Origin: Dehalococcoidia bacterium
Lineage (GTDB): Bacteria > Chloroflexota > Dehalococcoidia > SHYB01
Length of the DNA: 64,000 nucleotides
NCBI GenBank assembly: GCA_965219875.1
Contig: CBDCOW010000003.1
Location: 1,002,458-1,066,457 of the forward strand
Reading direction: 5' to 3'
The position numbers were made by a program, and so were the translations under genes. The notes beneath the pieces are model-generated. The model was not told the origin of the DNA. It saw nothing but the letters and a program-made list of their open reading frames with translations, and did no database searches. Shown in pieces: positions 11,416 through 63,475 of the stretch. Numbering within the stretch: position 1 is the stretch's first letter; each line of letters opens with the position of its first letter.

Positions 11416-12522
11416 ATGAGCCTACGGGGCGCGGCCGCGATCGTCGGCATCGGCGAGCTTCCAACCAGAAGGGACTACCCCGGAAGGTCGGCGTATTCTC
11501 TTTGCATTGAGGCCGCGAAACTGGCCATCGACGATGCGGGACTGCGCCACCAAGATATCGACGGCCTCATCACCTCCGCCGAGGACTTCAGCCCGATTAC
11601 GCTGGCCGAACGTTTGGGGCTTCGTCCCACCTTCCTGGAAGGAAGCCACCTCATGGGGGCCAGCGGCGCCCAGTCGATCGGACTCGCCGCCATGGCCGTC
11701 AACGCGGGTCTCGCCAATTACGTGCTCTGCGCCTTCGGGGGCGGCAGGGATCCCGCCTTTGGGCGGGGCGGACACGGGTCCTCCACGAGTATCAGGACGG
11801 AATTCGAGAGTCCCTACGGGCCGGTCGTCGCGGCCAACGGCGTCTACGCGCTGCTCAAACAGCGGCACATGCACCAGTTCGGCTCGACGGACGAGCAGTT
11901 CGCCAAGGTCGCCGCCGACCAGCGGTTCAACGCCCTGACCAACGAGAACGCAGTGTTCCACGGCAAGCCCATCACGACCGGCGACGTGCTGAACTCCCCA
12001 ATGGTGTGCGACCCCTTGCATCTGTTGGAATGCGTTATGCCCTGCGCGGGAGCTTTCGCCTGTGTGGTGACTTCCGCGGAACGGGCTAGGGCGTTGCCCC
12101 ATCCGCCGGCGTTCGTCCTTGGGGTCGGGTCGCACTCGACACACGAGCTCATTTGGCAGAGTCCCGACATCACGACGACTCCCGTCGAGGTATCGGCCCG
12201 GAAGGCCTTCGAAATGGCCCGCTACGGCCCGGGGGATGTCCAGTTCGCCGAACTCTATGACTGATACACGGTCCTCGCGGCCGTGAGCCTCGAAGATGCC
12301 GGGTTCTGCGAGAAGGGTGAGGCCGGGGCCTTTTACGAGTCGACGGACACGACCTACAAGGGAAGCTTCCCGGTCAACACGGACGGCGGCCAGCTCTCGG
12401 GCGGCCAGCTCACCGGCATGGGCGGGGGGTTCCGGCAGGTCGTCGAAGGTGCGCGCCAGATCATGGGCCGTGGCGGCGAGCGCCAAGTGCCGAAAGCGGA
12501 CCTCTGCACGATAAACGGCTGA
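11416..12522 (+). CDS. SCP2-type (nsLTP/lipid-transfer-protein-like) thiolase, interrupted by an in-frame TGA at 12262..12264 (candidate selenocysteine codon, or nonsense/pseudogene)
   Basis: MSLRGAAAIVGIGELPTRRDYPGRSAYSLCIEAAKLAIDDAGL... ATG at 11416 after a GAGGG. The frame reads ...QFAELYD-TGA-YTVLAAVSLEDAGFCEKGEAGAFYES...PVNTDGGQLSGGQLTGMGGGFRQVVEGARQIMGRGGERQV. The TGA sits where SCP2-thiolases carry the Cys of the (H/Y)DCF loop. The 79 downstream codons stay in frame and family-typical. Confidence 0.75.
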
Positions 12523-12586
12523 GGCGGCGACGCGAGCGTGATGTTCACGCTCATGCTCGGATCGGAAGCAGCCGAGTAGGCCGTCG

Positions 12587-13006
12587 ATGAGCGAAGCCGG
12601 TTACTCCAAGCCCCTCCCGATACCCGCGGACCCCGAGCTGACCAGGCCCTTCTGGGAGGCGGCCAAGCGCCACGAGCTACTCATCCCGCGCTGCGGCGAG
12701 TGCGGTCGCTTCTTCTTCTACCCCAGGCACGCGTGTCCGAATTGCCTGTCGTCGGACTGGGAGTGGGCGCCGGTCAGCGGTCGAGGCCGCGTCTACAGCT
12801 TCACCTTGGTCCGCCGGCCCGCCGACCCATCTTTCGCGGGCGACGTGCCCTACGCCTACGCCGTCGTCGAGCTTGACGAGGGGCCTCGAATGGTAACCGG
12901 CATCGTCGACTGCCCGCTCGAGGCCATCGAGATCGACATGCCGGTCCAAGTCCGGTTCGACGACGTGACCCCCGAGTGGACGCTGGTGAAGTTCGCCCCC
13001 GCTTGA
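12587..13006 (+). CDS. DUF35 family Zn-ribbon/OB-fold protein (thiolase-associated)
   Basis: CGECGRFFFYPRHACPNCLS zinc ribbon followed by an OB fold. DUF35 proteins characteristically accompany SCP2-type thiolases. Confidence 0.8.
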   Translation: MSEAGYSKPLPIPADPELTRPFWEAAKRHELLIPRCGECGRFFFYPRHACPNCLSSDWEWAPVSGRGRVYSFTLVRRPADPSFAGDVPYAYAVVELDEGPRMVTGIVDCPLEAIEIDMPVQVRFDDVTPEWTLVKFAPA

Positions 13007-26864: not shown

Positions 26865-27246
26865 CCATCAACGCATGCCCTGCCGAATCTCGCAAGGCGC
26901 CGCCGCGCAGGCGACTGAAAAGAGCCCGGTGTCGCCGATCTGTTGACTACTGAGTTGGCCGTAGAACAGCAAGACCACTCTGGCACGCCGCCGACAGGGC
27001 TACCGGCCCATTCGGCGTCGAGGAACAACGCGGCCAAATCAAGCTATGGCATCGCGACCCCGGGCGCTGTCCGCAATTAAGCCGGACCGGAAGTGGTGGG
27101 CCGATGTGTACGATAGATGGCACTGTCTTCGAGATGTGGATTGGCAGTCTGTGAGCTTTCCCAAACACTTAGCTCGGGTATTTTGGTGGGATAGGGTTAG
27201 GCAACGGAAGTGAGGGCAACCTGTCTACCAGCTCAAATCCTATTTC

Positions 27247-27928
27247 CTAATCACCGTGGCTTCCCCAGTTTCGCCTTACCTCAATCATGCCTCCCAAACA
27301 CCGCTTCATCAATACGGCAATGCCCACCATGCACTGGATCCAATTGTCCACGTTCTTCTGGGTGACGCGGGGGATCTCGTAAGTGAGACCACGTAACGCA
27401 AACCCGATGCGTCCGCTTTGGCCATCTTCAGGCTCCGTCAGGTCGTCCACCAAACTAAAAACCTGCTGAGTGCCGAAATGCACGAAGGCATTCGACCAAT
27501 TGTAAAGAGCGACAACGTTCGCGTCAGGCCGTCCTGAATCGAGGCGGGCTTGCAACCTTTTCACCAAGTACCGCTCGCGCATTAGGTGGCCTGAAGCAGA
27601 CTTGAGCTTGAATTCGATCCCCAGCCACAATGCGTTGGGCAAACTCGTGGTGACCTCCTATGTACTCGTCGCTGGCTACGGCTATGAGAACATGCTCCAG
27701 CGTGGGCCTAATGAATAGAGTCGCAGCGTAGTGATTATCCTCGCGCACCATTTTTGCGAATGCGTCGATAAACGCGTTCGTCCGTTTGGCTAAGGCGGGA
27801 ACTACGAATTCACAGGCTCCACAAATCGCTCCGTCAGATGCTAGCCACCAATCCTTGTGGAGGATATTGATCGAATCTATCTCAGATTCGAGTTCCTTTA
27901 ATGTTTGCTCCAAACCTGGGAACTTCAT
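27247..27928 (-). CDS. Hypothetical protein(s) of AT-rich islet; two overlapping ORFs (27524..27928 and 27247..27642) that may be one frameshifted gene
   Basis: The upstream ORF ends in a low-complexity tail (RIVAGDRIQAQVCFRPPNARAVLG...) after EFAQ. The downstream ORF begins protein-like only 6 codons after an in-frame stop. No domain recognised. Confidence 0.35.
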
Positions 27929-28015
27929 TTCATCCTTTCACTCGGCTGACAGTCTGACCCTCGTTGACAGAAGGGAAGTGGGCCACTTGAACGTTGCCAT
28001 CTGGCTTATGTCCCG

Positions 28016-29008
28016 TTAAAGTGCCTTTGTCTCCTCTCTTTCCTTCCTACGGTAGTAGTAGGCCAATTGCTGGCAGCTTTTATCGCAGTACTTCTGCCGA
28101 CCGTGCATTGGCTCAAAATAACGTCCACAGCCAGCTCGCTCACAAAGCATCGCAGGACGGCTACGCCCCGAGAGTTCCAGCATGAAATGTGTGTAGAGCG
28201 AGCTCAATAGGCAGTCTGGAAAGAAGAAGATCTCACCTTTACGAAAGGGGAGCACGGCGGGACTGACGTGGCCCCTTAGGCTGCTGTTAACCTCTCGATG
28301 CACAAAGTAGCGGACTGGTTCTACGGGATCTCCATAATTCCAGCGTTCCAATAGCTCTACATCATTACCGTTCTCCTCGTGAGCTAGTACCCTCACTTCC
28401 GAGTGTCTCGTGCGGGTGGCCAGATCCTTGTCCCGGCGTAAGTAATCACGAAACTCGTCGGGGCGATGCCGCATGAATTGTGCGAGGTCGGGTCGGAGCT
28501 TTCCGTCTATGTCCACGAGATAGAGTCGAACCTGTTGCGGTGTGCCCTGTGACGTCCACTCGACCAATTGACTCAATTCCCTCCGGCCTCCCCGCATGAT
28601 GAACTCCCATAGGGAGACCAGTCGGGCCATGCGCTCGATCTCCTTCTTCCAGACCCCAACAGGCTCCCCGATTACCATTCGCTGGTCGCTCGAGCCTGAG
28701 TCCTCAAGCCATGACCCGTGACCCAGGAGCCCATATTTGTCGGCGAAGGCAACGATGGACTCGGCAATGGGCTTAGTCCGAGCAAACCGCCTGTGCAGAT
28801 TAGCAACGGCCAGTGGTGAGTACTGGCGCACGTACAGGCTGTCCGGTCTGACCAACCAGGGTCCGGCAGTATTCTTCCCAGTCCCCTTGTCATCAACTAC
28901 GACGAGTTCCTCACGCAAGCTGAAACCATCCTCAGGCACTCGGAGGAGAGCTGCAAATGGTCCTCGTGTCATTGCCCGGAATGGCTGTCGTTCTCCCTCT
29001 AGCGTCAT
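28016..29008 (-). CDS. Hypothetical protein with C-terminal Cys4 zinc ribbon (islet gene)
   Basis: 331 aa from ATG 29008. C-terminus LCERAGCGRYFEPMHGRQKYCDKSCQQLAYYYRRKERE. No recognisable catalytic domain. Lower GC than the genome background. Confidence 0.5.
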   Translation of the reverse strand: MTLEGERQPFRAMTRGPFAALLRVPEDGFSLREELVVVDDKGTGKNTAGPWLVRPDSLYVRQYSPLAVANLHRRFARTKPIAESIVAFADKYGLLGHGSWLEDSGSSDQRMVIGEPVGVWKKEIERMARLVSLWEFIMRGGRRELSQLVEWTSQGTPQQVRLYLVDIDGKLRPDLAQFMRHRPDEFRDYLRRDKDLATRTRHSEVRVLAHEENGNDVELLERWNYGDPVEPVRYFVHREVNSSLRGHVSPAVLPFRKGEIFFFPDCLLSSLYTHFMLELSGRSRPAMLCERAGCGRYFEPMHGRQKYCDKSCQQLAYYYRRKEREETKAL

Positions 29009-29129
29009 CTTTATCCTCCTAACAGAAGTTCGATGCAAACTAGATGTATATACTCTAACAATGTAGCTTTAAGCGCGTTATTATGATTATAACCATAGAA
29101 ACCATCAGTGAGAAAGGGGTAGTCGGATT

Positions 29130-29411
29130 ATGGGCACGAAAGTATCATTTGAAGCTCGGTCTATTCTGCAGGAGGCAGTTTGCGGAGATGGCCTAATCAG
29201 CTTCACTCGTACCTTTGGTGGACAGTCCATCGCCACGAATGGTAAGGCAATGATTCCAGATGAGAAACCGAGAACCATCGCTCAATGGATCGGTGGCCTT
29301 GAGGAACTAGCACGGCTTGGCTACATCAGGGACATCGGTTACAAGGGAGAGGCGTTTGAGGTTACAAGAGAAGGTTACGAAGCGGCAGATGAGATACTCG
29401 ATACTGTCTAG
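29130..29411 (+). CDS. Hypothetical small protein (islet gene)
   Basis: 93-aa ORF preceded by AAAGGGG 8 nt upstream. Divergent from 28016..29008 across an AT-rich promoter region. Confidence 0.4.
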   Translation: MGTKVSFEARSILQEAVCGDGLISFTRTFGGQSIATNGKAMIPDEKPRTIAQWIGGLEELARLGYIRDIGYKGEAFEVTREGYEAADEILDTV

Positions 29412-29600
29412 CTCCGTCTGATGGGGATTCGGCGATGCCTAATGGGCCCCTATTCTACGGACTGGCCTCCATAGCAGCTCATCCCGCAGGAGCATCCACT
29501 TTCGGGGCTCAAGGGAGAGTCTAACCTGAGGGAGGGAGACGTGGGAGTCCCAAGCCGCCATTACCTATGAGGAGAGACCGCAACCGGAGGAGAAGAGCAT

Positions 29601-29750
29601 ATGAACGAACGAACTGTTTACGAGTTCCCAGGCTCCGATCGCGAGTTAGAGATCGACTCAGATGTAGCATGGCACACTGGCCCTGGCCGAGGCCGGGTAC
29701 ATGTTTCCCCGGAGGCGGGGCAGGTGATCGTCCACCCAGGCCAAGGTTAG
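29601..29750 (+). CDS. Candidate small ORF (49 aa) with strong RBS, running into degenerate tandem repeats; an amber stop separates it from 24 further in-frame repeat codons (to 29825)
   Basis: GGAGGAGAAGAGCAT precedes the ATG. The peptide is MNERTVYEFPGSDRELEIDSDVAWHTGPGRGRVHVSPEAGQVIVHPGQG, then TAG, then VVVKSGQGQVVVTKDGPGQVIVQG. Confidence 0.25.
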   Translation: MNERTVYEFPGSDRELEIDSDVAWHTGPGRGRVHVSPEAGQVIVHPGQG

Positions 29751-29892
29751 GTAGTCGTCAAGTCGGGTCAGGGTCAAGTAGTCGTGACCAAGGACGGCCC
29801 AGGTCAAGTAATCGTCCAAGGCTGATGGGATGGTGTCCCAGCGATGGGCTCCGGTACCACCTACTGTCCACTATGTTAAGGAAATTCAAACC

Positions 29893-29968
29893 TGGTGGAC
29901 CCGAGGGGAGTCGAACCCCTGACCTCCTGAATGCAAATCAGGCGCTCTCCCAACTGAGCTACGGGCCC
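29893..29968 (-). tRNA. tRNA-Ala (anticodon UGC), CCA encoded
   Basis: Manual fold of the reverse complement: acceptor GGGCCCG/CGGGUCC with the G3:U70 Ala identity pair, D-arm GCUC-AGUUGGGA-GAGC, anticodon stem CCUGA with loop UUUGCAU, T-arm AGGGG-UUCGACU-CCCCU, 3' ACCA. 76 nt. Confidence 0.9.
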
Positions 29969-30012: not shown

Positions 30013-31200
30013 CTAGTTGACGCGTTGAAAGATACCGGCGCAGCCTTGGCCGCCGCCGACGCACATGGTGACCAGGGCGTATTCGCCGTCGATGCGGTCG
30101 AGTTCGTCCATGGCCTTAAGCGTCATGATGGCCCCCGTTGCGCCGACGGGGTGGCCGAGGGCGATGCCGCTGCCGTTGGGGTTCGTCTTCTCGATGTCGA
30201 GGCCGAGCTCTCGGATGCAATACGCGGCCTGGGCGGCGAAGGCCTCGTTCAACTCGATGACGTCGATGTCATCCAGCGTCATGCCGGTGCGCTTCAGGAC
30301 CTTGCGCACCGCGGGGACGGGGCCGATGCCCATGACCGAGGGATCGACGCCGGCGACGGCGCGCGCGATCCAGCGGAGGCGCGGCTTAAGGCCCAGCTCG
30401 TCGGCCTTCCGCTGCGACATCACCACCACCGCCGCCGCGCCGTCGTTGATGCCCGAAGCGTTGCCCGCCGTCACCGAGCCGCCCTCCTTGAAGGCCGGCC
30501 GCAGCGCGGCGAGCGCTTCGAGCGTGGTGCCGGGGCGGGGGTGCTCGTCGGTCTCGACGATCTTGGGGTCGGCCTTGCGTTGGGGCACGGCGACGGAGAC
30601 GATCGAGGGTTTGAAGCGTCCCTCCGCGATGGCGCGTCCGGCGCGCTGCTGGCTCATCACGGCCAGCTCGTCCTGCTCCTGGCGGGAGACCTCGAAGCGG
30701 CTCGCGACGTTCTCCGCCGTCACCCCCATATGGTAGTAGTTCACGGGGCAGTTCAGGCCGGCGATCAGGCCGTCCTTCACCGAAACGTCCCCCATGCGGA
30801 AGCCGTCCCACCGGGCCTGCTTGGGCATCAGATAGGGGGTCTGGCTCATGTTCTCGGCGCCGCCGGCGACGGCGATCTCCGCCTCGCCGGTCAAGATCAA
30901 CTGGGCCGCCATGTTGATCGACTCCAAGCCGGAGGAGCACCAGCGGTTGATGTTGATCGCCGGGACCTCTTCGGGGATCCCCGCGCGCAGCGCCGCCACG
31001 CGCGAAGTGTAGCCGTCGTCGTTCACCTGGAGCACGTTGCCGAGGACCACCTCGTCGACATCCTTGGGGTCGACGTTGGCGCGGCTGAGCGCCTCCTTCA
31101 TGGCGACGGCGCCGAGGTCGACCGCCGAGTAGTCTTTGAACGATCCGCCGAATCTGCCGATCGGGGTACGCGCGCCGCTGACGATAACCGGGTTGTCCAT
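30013..31200 (-). CDS. Acetyl-CoA C-acyltransferase (classical thiolase)
   Basis: VIVSGARTPIGRFGGS, NRWCSSGLESI (active Cys), NEAFAAQ, GHPVGATG, CVGGGQG are all the classical thiolase catalytic loops. Confidence 0.9.
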   Translation of the reverse strand: MDNPVIVSGARTPIGRFGGSFKDYSAVDLGAVAMKEALSRANVDPKDVDEVVLGNVLQVNDDGYTSRVAALRAGIPEEVPAININRWCSSGLESINMAAQLILTGEAEIAVAGGAENMSQTPYLMPKQARWDGFRMGDVSVKDGLIAGLNCPVNYYHMGVTAENVASRFEVSRQEQDELAVMSQQRAGRAIAEGRFKPSIVSVAVPQRKADPKIVETDEHPRPGTTLEALAALRPAFKEGGSVTAGNASGINDGAAAVVVMSQRKADELGLKPRLRWIARAVAGVDPSVMGIGPVPAVRKVLKRTGMTLDDIDVIELNEAFAAQAAYCIRELGLDIEKTNPNGSGIALGHPVGATGAIMTLKAMDELDRIDGEYALVTMCVGGGQGCAGIFQRVN

Positions 31201-31339: not shown

Positions 31340-32752
31340 ATGGGACGCTCTCGAAGCGCCGAGCCCACCAAGGCCGGGAACGGCGCCCGCCCCGGCAACG
31401 GGTACCGGCGGCTGCCCAGCGTGGACGCCGTGGCGGGCGACCCCCGTCTCGAACAGGCCGTGTCCCGCTACTCGCGGCCCGCTGTCGTCGAAGCGGTACG
31501 CGGTCAGATCGAGCGGGCGCGGGCGCGCATCGCCGCCGGCGAGGCGCCGCCGTCGGAAGACGAGGTCATCGCCGGGGCCGAGGCCGCCCTCTCCCGCGAC
31601 CTCGAACCCTCGCTGCTCTCCGTCATCAACGCCACCGGCGTCGTGCTCCACACCAACCTAGGACGCGCGCCGTTGAGCGCAGAGGCGGCCGAGGCTGCCC
31701 GCCGCGCCGCCGCGGGCTACGGCAACCTCGAAATGGACCTCTCGGTGGGCGAGCGCGGGTCGCGCCACACCCACCTCGACGAGCTACTGCGCCGGATCAC
31801 CGGCGCCGAGGCCGGATTCGCGGTCAATAACAACGCCGCCGCCGTCATGCTCACGGTGCGCGCCGTCGCCCGCGGCAAGGAGGTCGTCGTCTCGCGCGGC
31901 GAGGCCGTCGAGGTCGGCGGCGGCTTCCGCATCCCCGACGTGCTCGCCCAGTCCGACGCCGCGCTGGTCGAGGTCGGGACTACGAACCGCACCTACGTGG
32001 GGGACTACGAGGACGCGGTGACGGAAGAGACCGCCGCCTTCCTCAAGGTTCATCGCAGCAACTTCAGGGTCACCGGCTTCACGCACGAGGCCGGCCTTGC
32101 CGAGCTTGCCGAAGCGGCGGCGCGCCGCGGCGTCCCCTTGCTCTACGACCTCGGCAGCGGCTGCCTGCTCGATAGCGCGGAATACGGCCTCGCCCACGAG
32201 CCGACGCCCGCCGAGGCGGTGCGCGAGGGGGCGGACGTCGTCATGTTCTCCGGCGACAAGCTGCTCGGCGGACCGCAGGCCGGCATCGTGGTCGGCAAGA
32301 GCCGCTACATCGACATTCTCAAGAAGCATCCACTCGTCCGCGCCATGCGGATCGACAAGGCGACGATGGCCGCCCTCCAGATGACGTTGCTGCACTATCT
32401 ACGCGGCGAGGCGGCGGAGAAGCTGCCCATCTGGCGAATGATCGCCGCGCTGCCCCCGGCCCTCGAACGGCGGGCCAAGCGTCTCGCCAAGGCCGCCGGG
32501 CCGGGCGCGGCGGTGCGCGACGGCGCGTCGGCCATCGGCGGCGGCACGCTCCCTGGGGAGGCGCTGCCCACGCGGGTAGTGGCGATTCCACCCGGCGGCA
32601 CCGGCGTCGAGGCCATGGCCGCGGCACTGCGCACAGGCTCACCGCCCATCGTGGCACGCATCGAGCGCGACGCCCTGATCGTCGATCCGCGCACCGTCCT
32701 CCCCGAGCAGGACCGGACCGTGGCCGAGGCCCTCGCCCGGCTCCGCGGCTAG
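31340..32752 (+). CDS. selA: L-seryl-tRNA(Sec) selenium transferase (selenocysteine synthase)
   Basis: VINATGVVLHTNLGRAPLS, GYGNLEMDLSVGERGSRH, VNNNAAAVMLT, EVVVSRGEAVEVGGGFRIPDV, LVEVGTTNRT, KVHRSNF and SGDKLLGGPQAGIVVG with the PLP-Lys match SelA motif for motif. Confidence 0.9.
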   Translation: MGRSRSAEPTKAGNGARPGNGYRRLPSVDAVAGDPRLEQAVSRYSRPAVVEAVRGQIERARARIAAGEAPPSEDEVIAGAEAALSRDLEPSLLSVINATGVVLHTNLGRAPLSAEAAEAARRAAAGYGNLEMDLSVGERGSRHTHLDELLRRITGAEAGFAVNNNAAAVMLTVRAVARGKEVVVSRGEAVEVGGGFRIPDVLAQSDAALVEVGTTNRTYVGDYEDAVTEETAAFLKVHRSNFRVTGFTHEAGLAELAEAAARRGVPLLYDLGSGCLLDSAEYGLAHEPTPAEAVREGADVVMFSGDKLLGGPQAGIVVGKSRYIDILKKHPLVRAMRIDKATMAALQMTLLHYLRGEAAEKLPIWRMIAALPPALERRAKRLAKAAGPGAAVRDGASAIGGGTLPGEALPTRVVAIPPGGTGVEAMAAALRTGSPPIVARIERDALIVDPRTVLPEQDRTVAEALARLRG

Positions 32753-32843: not shown

Positions 32844-33207
32844 ATGCCCTGGGAGGTCGAGTACACAGACGAGTTTGGGCAGTGGTGGCTAGGGACTAGC
32901 GGAGGGACAACAGGATGCCGTGACCGCCAGGGTCGAACTGATGATGGAGCATGGCCCCAACCTGCCTTTTCCCTTCTCCTCGGGCATAGTGGGATCCCGC
33001 CACGGGGTGATGCGGGAACTTCGAGCGCAGAGCGGCGGCAGGCCCCTACGGGTCTTCTACGCCTTCGACCCTAGGAGAACGGCCATACTTCTCATCGGCG
33101 GCGACAAGACGGGCAACGACAGGTTCTACGAGGAGTACGTGCCGGTTGCCGACCACCTCTACGACGAGCATCTGGAGGAACTGCGCAGGGAGGGACTGAT
33201 CAAATGA
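32844..33207 (+). pseudogene. HigB/RelE-superfamily toxin (mycobacterial HigB2/3-like, COG4683-type) with a +1 frameshift around 32892..32894
   Basis: Frame A gives MPWEVEYTDEFGQWWLG and then garbage. Frame B resumes with GLAEGQQDAVTARVELMMEHGPNLPFPFSSGIVGSRHGVMRELRAQSGGRPLRVFYAFDPRRTAILLIGGDKTGNDRFYEEYVPVADHLYDEHL. Removing one G from the GGG run joins them into a full-length family-typical toxin. Confidence 0.6.
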
Positions 33208-33539
33208 GTGGACGTCATCCGTTCAGCGAGCTGACCAAAGACTTCACGCCAGAGCGCCGCCAGCGCATCGAGGCCTTGAAGGGCGAGATGCTCGCCGAAA
33301 TGCCGCTGCACGAGCTTCGCCGGGCCCGGGAGCTGACCCAACGGGACTTGGCGAACATGCTCAGGGTGAACCAGCCCGCCATTTCCAAGCTGGAGCAGCG
33401 GACCGACGTGTACGTCTCCAGCCTTCGCGCTTACATCGAGGCAGTGGGGGGAAAGCTGAAGATCGTCGCCGAGTTTCCCGAAGGTGAGGTCGCCATTACC
33501 AACTTCTCCGAAGTGGGTGAGGCCGAAGAAGCTTCCTGA
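33204..33539 (+). CDS. XRE-family HTH antitoxin (HigA-like)
   Basis: LTQRDLANMLRVNQPAISKLEQRTDVYVSSLRAYIEAVGGKLKI is a Cro/C1-type HTH. It overlaps the toxin stop by 4 nt. Confidence 0.75.
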   Translation: MSGRHPFSELTKDFTPERRQRIEALKGEMLAEMPLHELRRARELTQRDLANMLRVNQPAISKLEQRTDVYVSSLRAYIEAVGGKLKIVAEFPEGEVAITNFSEVGEAEEAS

Positions 33540-37780: not shown

Positions 37781-38458
37781 GGACCTTTGCACAACCGTCC
37801 GCGGGCAAGCATGGGTGGGGCCGGGAGGTCTTGCCTCTTCTCCCCACGGGAGAAGATTGAGATGAGGGGCCCCCTCGCAACCGCCACGGGTTATCGAAGT
37901 CCGCCACCCTCGCGGTCATTCACTCCGGTTACGCAAAGGTCTCCGCCAGAGGAGACCTTTGCACAACCGTCCGCGGGCAAGCATGGGTAGGGCCGGGAGG
38001 TCTTGCCTCTTCTCCCCACGGGAGAAGATTGAGATGAGGGGCCCCCTCGCAACCGCCACGGGTTATCGAAGTCCGCCACCCTCGCGGTCATTCACTCCGG
38101 TTACGCAAAGGTCTCCGCCAGAGGAGACCTTTGCACAACCGTCCGCGGCAAGCATGGGTGGGGCCGGGAGGTCTTGCCTCTTCTCCCCACGGGAGAAGAT
38201 TGAGATGAGGGGCCCCCTCGCAACCGCCACGGGTTATCGAAGTCCGCCACCCTCGCGGTCATTCACCCCGGTTACGCAAGGGTCTCCGCCAGAGGAGACC
38301 TTTGCACAACCGTCCGCGGCAAGCATGGGTGGGGCCGGGAGGTCTTGCCTCTTCTCCCCACGGGAGAAGATTGAGATGAGGGGCCCCCTCGCAACCGCCA
38401 CGGGTTATCGAAGTCCGCCACCCTCGCGGTCATTCACCCCGGTTACGCAAGGGTCTCG
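37781..38458 (+). repeat. Head-to-tail tandem array of ~4 copies of a 171-172-bp MITE-like unit (same TIR family)
   Basis: Unit starts at 37783, 37955, 38127 and 38298, more than 98% identical. Each junction forms a perfect 12-bp palindrome GCAAAGGTCTCC-gccaga-GGAGACCTTTGC. There is an internal 9-bp hairpin TCTTCTCCC-cac-GGGAGAAGA. Confidence 0.9.
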
Positions 38459-63306: not shown

Positions 63307-63475
63307 CCCAAGGAGACCTTTGCGTAACTGGGACTTGACCACACGGGTGGCGGTCTTCGATAGGGTGTGGCGGTTGCGAGGGGGCCCCTCATCTCAATCT
63401 TCTCCCGGGGGGAGAAGAGGCAAGACCTCCCGGCTCCACCCATCTCAGCCCTCGGACGGGTCAACGTAAGGGTCT
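63307..63475 (-). repeat. Inverted single copy of the 172-bp MITE-like unit with both TIRs
   Basis: 63340..63440 is the reverse complement of the array-unit core (CGAGGGGGCCCCTCATCTCAATCTTCTCCC...). TIRs AGGAGACCTTTGCGTAAC and GTCAACGTAAGGGTCTCC at the ends. Confidence 0.7.

Follow-up and report, generated by a model that had tools for sequence, protein, structure and literature searches.

An intact selA gene and a candidate selenoprotein gene with two in-frame TGA codons in a Dehalococcoidia genome

The stretch of DNA described here (hereafter the window) is a 64-kb segment, 64,000 nucleotides in all, of contig CBDCOW010000003.1 from a Dehalococcoidia bacterium (assembly GCA_965219875.1), and its positions are numbered from its first letter. 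It carries a selA gene (31340–32752, forward strand) coding for L-seryl-tRNA(Sec) selenium transferase, which is confirmed by its sequence features as an intact, ordinary selenocysteine synthase gene of a known kind. Nineteen kilobases upstream lies a thiolase-like gene (11416–12579, forward strand) with two conserved in-frame TGA codons. It is quite probable, from the combined sequence evidence, that this SelA is functional, that the host decodes UGA as selenocysteine (Sec), and that the thiolase-like gene is a candidate client of the system. The selA gene itself is of a type already known, and the thiolase-like gene may represent a so far undescribed family of selenoproteins.

The SelA protein

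The selA reading frame begins with an ATG at 31340, ends with a TAG at 32750–32752, and encodes a 470-residue protein. This matches the NCBIfam equivalog TIGR00474 (selA) with 542.4 bits, twice the cut-off of 267.9, across positions 1–454 of the 455 in the profile, and Pfam family PF03841 (SelA) with 443 bits across positions 1–366 of 367. The N-terminal domain, PF12390 (Se-cys_synth_N), is encoded at 31403–31522 on the forward strand (residues 22–61) and matches all 40 profile positions with 40 bits. Matches to known structures include the Aquifex aeolicus enzyme (PDB 3W1H; E=1e-106) and a 463-residue Escherichia coli protein (8UZW; E=1e-99), and alignments of the window SelA with the Aquifex (3W1H/3W1K) and E. 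coli (8UZW) proteins span the full length.

Alignment with 3W1H places K307 (codon 32258–32260, forward strand), the pyridoxal phosphate (PLP)-binding lysine in the motif FSGDKLLGGPQAG, on K285 of A. aeolicus SelA (Aa), with S304 and D306 on Aa S282 and Aa D284. We used the residue roles listed by Cravedi et al. 2015 (PMC4607533) for selenophosphate, PLP and interface positions. The residues that bind or position selenophosphate are kept, with Aa R86, R119, D284, R312 and R315 corresponding to R109, R142, D306, R334 and R337 respectively, as are the PLP-contact residues Aa S217 and S282. Four of the five positions at the dimer-dimer interface of the decamer are also kept (Aa R174, T191, T192 and D199), and the region 218–224 is not deleted. 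The window SelA differs from the Aquifex and E. coli enzymes by a 21-residue low-complexity extension at its N-terminus and at the fifth interface position, Y220, to which we return below.

The initial annotation, made from the letters alone, had called this gene an unambiguous SelA, and the family matches (TIGR00474, PF03841 and PF12390) and retained catalytic residues bear it out; its coordinates and its motif with the PLP lysine prove to be exact. It had also named a truncated or inactive paralogue lacking the PLP lysine as the alternative that would overturn the assignment, and the profile match is full-length with K307 present. Two other identities within the SelA fold were considered and rejected, as the protein scores 83 bits against the DgaE model TIGR01437 (cut-off 385) and 30 bits against the MJ0158 model TIGR03576 (cut-off 304).

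Judged from its A. aeolicus and E. coli homologues, the window SelA would form a PLP-dependent homodecamer, bind Ser-tRNA(Sec) through its N-terminal domain, and convert this to Sec-tRNA(Sec) by exchanging the seryl hydroxyl for selenium donated by selenophosphate.

Selection and distribution of selA

A 5.37-Mb ENA contig (ERZ25067264 ctg836675, L001) encodes a SelA that is 97% identical and likewise 470 residues long. The closest GTDB species representative is the chromosome OZ242299.1 (L005) of a Dehalococcoidia metagenome-assembled genome, at 87–88% identity. Nei-Gojobori estimates of the ratio of nonsynonymous to synonymous substitution rates (dN/dS) for selA are 0.19 in the comparison with L001 and 0.16, at a dS of 0.42, in that with L005, and the SelA cluster at 90% identity has 49 members, on many contigs of up to 5.37 Mb. 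Purifying selection thus acts on selA throughout a genus that is well sampled. Exact look-ups of the window SelA and of the antitoxin encoded downstream gave no match in the assembly index; those of the neighbouring thiolase and of the DUF35 protein described below did lead to related contigs. Cravedi et al. reported a selA dN/dS of 0.24 in the relaxed Helicobacter pylori lineage and of 0.02–0.08 elsewhere (PMC4607533), so that values of 0.16–0.19 do not by themselves tell a working SelA from a relic.

Selenocysteine competence of the host

The initial annotation noted that the window has no selB, selC or selD, and the searches agree. Within the 64 kb, tblastn with SelB and SelD from E. coli and Dehalococcoidia returned noise (best E=0.18), and in the search for tRNA-Sec a tRNA-Ala was all that came out of ARAGORN and of Rfam, which was run once with gathering scores and once with E<=1. 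The tRNA-Sec reported for Chloroflexi has an 8/4 form. In E. coli selA adjoins selB, and in Firmicutes it sits in a selD-selA-selB cluster, whereas the window selA has no selB beside it. A total of 80 genome loci were recovered with the window SelA, among which the Firmicutes show the classical selD-selA-selB cluster. Sixteen of the loci are from Chloroflexota, and were examined within 10 kb of selA; selB, selD and tRNA-Sec are all present in that interval at just one of them (L026). A solitary selA is thus the usual arrangement in Chloroflexota, and the missing neighbouring selB is not unusual.

Searches for SelB homologues, with queries from L026 and the Tepidiformaceae protein P0146, gave none on contigs of the genus among the 120 matches listed, which is uninformative; the matches listed, at least 120, are Tepidiformaceae-like SelB proteins that form one tight clade. 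Two points have to be set against a functional SelA in a Sec-decoding host: the arginine that replaces Aa Y220 at the dimer-dimer interface, and the fact that neither the window scans nor the SelB homologue searches found selB, selD or tRNA-Sec for the host genome.

A rival reading is that SelA is an orphan or a relic, kept for some other PLP-dependent function after its lineage gave up Sec decoding, as for H. pylori HP1513 and in some Frankia. Precedents exist, since H. pylori and some Frankia retain selA after losing the Sec trait, and in gastric Helicobacter the linkage of the sel genes was lost before the trait itself (PMC4607533). The window selA is solitary, the 30 kb to each side of it being free of other sel genes, and the other Sec machinery was not found for the host genome. 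HP1513, DgaE and MJ0158 resemble it in having the PLP-dependent SelA fold and an unlinked sel gene, but they are without the N-terminal domain for tRNA(Sec) binding that the window SelA has. Main-lineage SelA proteins with that domain occur in Sec-decoding organisms, and orphan SelA proteins have lost it (PMC4607533). The window protein retains PF12390 together with the interface residues R174, T191, T192 and D199, solitary selA genes are common at Chloroflexota loci, and the conserved in-frame TGAs described below require a decoding system. We therefore regard a relic SelA as unlikely.

The favored explanation is a host that reads UGA as Sec, and this is very likely correct, on the basis of the protein features, the phylogenetic context and a sign of recoding in the window that does not depend on selA. 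Sec competence had been deduced in the initial annotation from the presence of selA. That deduction is now better supported, because SelA keeps its N-terminal domain and because in-frame TGAs are conserved with coding constraint downstream; it falls short of proof, the searches for selB, selD and tRNA-Sec in the host genome having found none. The host would then be a high-GC bacterium of the class Dehalococcoidia (Chloroflexota) whose selA is not grouped with selB, selC and selD, these presumably lying elsewhere in the genome, and which most likely decodes UGA as Sec. Taken alone, selA adds one more uncultured Dehalococcoidia lineage that probably uses selenocysteine, in a class known for selenoprotein-rich genomes; two Dehalococcoidia genomes listed in BSepDB, with 49 and 46 selenoprotein genes, have among the largest bacterial selenoproteomes (PMC13326102).

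A thiolase-like gene with two in-frame TGA codons

The candidate client surfaced in a scan for in-frame TGAs. The gene at 11416–12579 is related to the Sal, Ltp2 and SCP2-thiolase proteins (PF22691, NF004811), and is followed on the same strand by a DUF35 partner gene (12587–13006; zf-ChsH2 and OB_ChsH2_C, PF12172 and PF01796). The first in-frame TGA (TGA#1, 12262–12264) is codon 283, within FAELYD-U-YTVL (FAELYD-U-YTVLAAVSLEDAGF), and occupies the cysteine position of the YDC/HDCF motif. The second (TGA#2, 12520–12522) is codon 369, within ADLCTING-U-GGDASVMFTLMLGSEAAE, and is followed by a TAG stop at 12577–12579. Translation through both TGAs reaches the C-terminus typical of the family, with NF004811 matched end to end over residues 2–385. 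The predicted client of the Sec system would be this gene with its DUF35 partner, with UGA at codons 283 and 369.

The thiolase-like gene is identical in sequence in L087, an independent short-read assembly, and both TGAs are present there. The pairing with a DUF35 gene also recurs, in L087, L169, L171 and L174. Homologous DNA was compared in nine independent sequences that are 54–71% identical (L089, L090, L091, L092, both copies in L093, L169, L171 and L172), and the site 2 codon is TGA in all nine. At site 1 a TGA is present in L089 (66% identical) and L169 (71%), in addition to the window and L087. The real stops of these homologous genes are TAA or TAG in every case, and there are no frameshifts. 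Among the nearest 120 protein clusters, site 1 is cysteine in 113, a called stop in three, and proline, glycine or asparagine in four, while the called protein ends immediately after [VI][NH]G at site 2 in 105, with P0094 in addition ending in ILNG.

The sequence beyond each TGA has the properties of coding DNA. Over the 85 codons between TGA#1 and TGA#2 the dN/dS is 0.04–0.17, with dS saturated, and over the 18 codons past TGA#2 it is 0.26, the differences being distributed 94/80/202 over the three codon positions. Because of these coding-type ratios and the third-position bias of the differences, we conclude that both stretches are translated. The conserved TGAs thus suggest Sec decoding on grounds independent of selA.

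An alternative is that the TGAs mark a pseudogene in decay, or arose as an artefact of assembly, and offer no evidence of recoding. Decay or sequence errors do occur in the window, as illustrated by the frameshift relative to L001 in a Gp49-type toxin gene. However, both TGAs are found in the independent assembly L087 and in lineages 66–71% identical, the interrupting stop is always TGA and never TAA or TAG, frameshifts are absent, the dN/dS downstream is 0.04–0.26, and 105 of the 120 homologue clusters end at the same residue. To judge from these patterns the pseudogene or artefact explanation is effectively refuted, and we consider it extremely improbable.

TGA is also used in the window as an ordinary stop. 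Among 24 confident genes the stops are TAG in 12, TGA in nine and TAA in three, at a GC content of 66–70%; in high-GC bacteria the share of TAG is usually smaller. We rejected the idea that TGA is reassigned throughout, as TGA ends nine of the 24 genes, and the recoding is therefore site-specific. The initial annotation had proposed listing other genes with in-frame TGAs; within the window, a scan of codon usage around all such TGAs gave no selenoprotein candidate beyond the thiolase-like gene.

Hairpins following the TGA codons

A hairpin resembling a selenocysteine insertion sequence (SECIS) is predicted downstream of TGA#2 (12534–12552, forward strand). Starting 11 nucleotides past the codon, GAGCGUG-AUGUU-CACGCUC would form a 7-bp stem with a 5-nucleotide loop. 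When eight sequences are compared 85.7% of the cells are paired, as against 20–54% for slid registers, and compensatory changes are seen at three pairs, with G-C replaced by C-G in L171, and U-A by A-U and G-C by A-U in L092. In both L093 copies the register of the hairpin is shifted. The serine-containing homologue L173 has a weak hairpin at the place equivalent to TGA#2. A search of Rfam gave no SECIS match.

In L169 (ERZ25766727 ctg361017), which also bears a double-TGA thiolase-like gene, a second gene is split by a TGA. This AhpC- or peroxiredoxin (Prx)-like gene occupies positions 1–439 on the reverse strand and reads FFTSPGGGN*TRMALGY, with the TGA at the position of the peroxidatic cysteine. 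It is followed by a hairpin of 7 bp with the loop GGUAC that starts at nucleotide 13, 9 nucleotides past the TGA, and has the same geometry as the TGA#2 hairpin. Peroxiredoxins with Sec at the peroxidatic cysteine position are a known kind of selenoprotein.

Several observations tell against Sec insertion at the two sites of the thiolase-like gene. Full-length homologues have asparagine (six), cysteine (one), serine (one) or valine (one) at site 2, an unusual pattern for a Sec site. The measures of the TGA#2 hairpin are reached by 11 to 38 of 500 shuffles, which with eight sequences makes these measures suggestive only, and a strong hairpin is present at the TGA#2-equivalent place in the cysteine-containing homologue L174. 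After TGA#1 no convincing hairpin is conserved in all three TGA#1 sequences, and the fold of the 69 nucleotides past TGA#1 is no more stable than shuffles (z=0.16). On the whole, the evidence for a SECIS at TGA#2 is suggestive.

A further alternative is that the UGAs are decoded other than as Sec, either as Cys by a tRNA(Sec)-like selC* tRNA(Cys)UCA or by near-cognate read-through, in which event selA would say nothing about the gene. Bacterial selC* tRNA(Cys)UCA systems do exist (Mukai et al., PMC5389517). Cysteine would serve at site 1, where it is found in 113 of the 120 homologue clusters, and homologues accommodate Asn, Ser, Val or Cys at site 2. But the selC* systems were reported in Firmicutes, Thermodesulfobacteria, Nitrospirae and Proteobacteria and not in Chloroflexi, and always together with a complete Sec apparatus (PMC5389517). 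The window moreover has a full selA, and the Prx-like UGA of L169, at a peroxidatic cysteine, has a hairpin with the geometry of that at TGA#2. We rate non-Sec decoding as improbable, marginally more so than a relic SelA, and prefer Sec at both UGAs.

Possible function of the thiolase-like protein

The position of the canonical thiolase nucleophile is a glycine (GASG) throughout the wider family to which the thiolase-like protein belongs. Its nearest structures are 9MYR (named a "nonspecific lipid-transfer protein"), 4U4E (a thiolase) and 6OK1 (the Ltp2 aldolase), and its nearest known relatives are the bile-acid aldolase CtSal, TcLtp2 (6OK1) and the Trypanosoma brucei SCP2-thiolase (4BI9). 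The tyrosine of the Y-D-U motif aligns with the catalytic Tyr294 of Ltp2, and the U at position 283 falls on the cysteine of the HDCF motif in the T. brucei enzyme, a position that is cysteine in 4BI9 and alanine in 4BIA. CtSal is a DUF35-partnered aldolase with Tyr302 and Cys304 as its catalytic pair (PMC12329534); its Y-x-C spacing is that of the Y-D-U in the window, and U283 corresponds to Cys304. The window gene further shares with the DUF35-partnered thiolase-fold aldolases the absence of the nucleophilic cysteine, the DUF35 gene that follows, and the Y-D-C motif.

Two features set the window gene apart from CtSal, TcLtp2 and SCP2-thiolase. The codon for the catalytic cysteine is TGA in the window gene and in no fewer than three further lineages, and most of the clade to which the gene belongs carries another TGA, presumably in the GxGG loop near the C-terminus. 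We presume that Sec369 would be placed in this loop, which lines the active site in thiolases. By analogy with these relatives, the protein may catalyse a Sal-like retro-aldol reaction or a thiolase-type reaction on an acyl-coenzyme A (acyl-CoA), with Sec283 in place of the catalytic cysteine.

On balance we lean towards a family of selenoproteins that is undescribed and widespread in the Dehalococcoidia, with a DUF35-partnered, nucleophile-less thiolase fold, probably acting as a Sal-like acyl-CoA retro-aldolase and served by selA. Most of its members would have Sec in the GxGG loop, at a position that in relatives is Asn, Thr or Ser and not Cys, and a few lineages, the window's among them, would have a second Sec at the cysteine of Y-D-C. 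Full-text literature searches found no paper that pairs selenocysteine with a thiolase fold. The words "thiolase" and "acyltransferase" do not appear in the main text of a 2026 review of prokaryotic selenoproteomes, and "thiolase" is absent from the deep-Sep and BSepDB texts, though the supplementary files of BSepDB could still list the family.

If the UGAs specify Sec, a common acyl-CoA enzyme of Dehalococcoidia would have selenium in its active site, and site 2 would be unusual in that its relatives have Asn rather than Cys. Given that Sec decoding is likely, annotators of the host and related genomes should not take in-frame TGAs for stops or for signs of a pseudogene. The annotation problem is sharpest for the thiolase-like gene itself, which public gene callers end at TGA#2 in 105 of the 120 clusters and at TGA#1 in three.

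Genes flanking selA

The initial annotation placed selA between a thiolase and a toxin-antitoxin module, and tied it to an interruption in the adjoining thiolase. The flanks are as described, at 30013–31200 and 32844–33539, but the thiolase beside selA is not interrupted. It is a BktB-like acetyl-CoA C-acyltransferase (30013–31200, reverse strand), transcribed divergently from selA as an uninterrupted open reading frame (ORF) of 395 residues, with full-length Thiolase_N and Thiolase_C domains and a TIGR01930 score of 478 bits; an identical copy of the protein is encoded on the 5.37-Mb contig. The interrupted gene is the separate one at 11416–12579, 19 kb upstream of selA, and has two TGAs rather than one. 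The link of selA to a thiolase would be functional, to a gene 19 kb away, and does not consist of physical adjacency. With the BktB-like protein as query, tblastn detected no other thiolase in the window, the TGA-interrupted gene being too divergent for this search.

Downstream of selA are a frameshifted Gp49/HigB-type toxin gene (32844–33207, forward strand; PF05973 on the 3' frame) and an intact HTH_37 (HigA-like) antitoxin gene (33204–33539, forward strand; PF13744, E=7e-11), followed by MutS2 and then MgsA/RarA. The toxin gene has one extra T near 32890 relative to L001, a 97.6% identical relative in which the gene is intact and encodes 120 residues. The frameshift reflects either decay of the toxin or a sequence error.

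The only tRNA in the window, beside the BktB-like thiolase gene, is a tRNA-Ala(UGC) at 29893–29968 on the reverse strand (ARAGORN; Rfam RF00005, 70.6 bits). Directly 3' of it is a 2.96-kb segment (26934–29892) that has a GC content of 55–59%, compared with 65–70% around it, and that is missing from L001. Its ORFs are at 27247–27928, 28016–29038 (340 residues) and 29130–29411. The segment looks like a small island integrated beside the tRNA-Ala gene, although a search for att-type direct repeats flanking it gave none that were convincing.

A tandem repeat is located between mgsA and the next gene (37782–38457), and consists of 3.9 copies of a 171-bp unit at 99% identity; L001 has a single copy. 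An Rfam scan of the unit gave no credible match. ARAGORN reports part of it as an odd 76-nucleotide tRNA-Leu(CAG) in L005 (7942–8017) and as no tRNA in the window. A related copy of the unit is present at 63313–63459.

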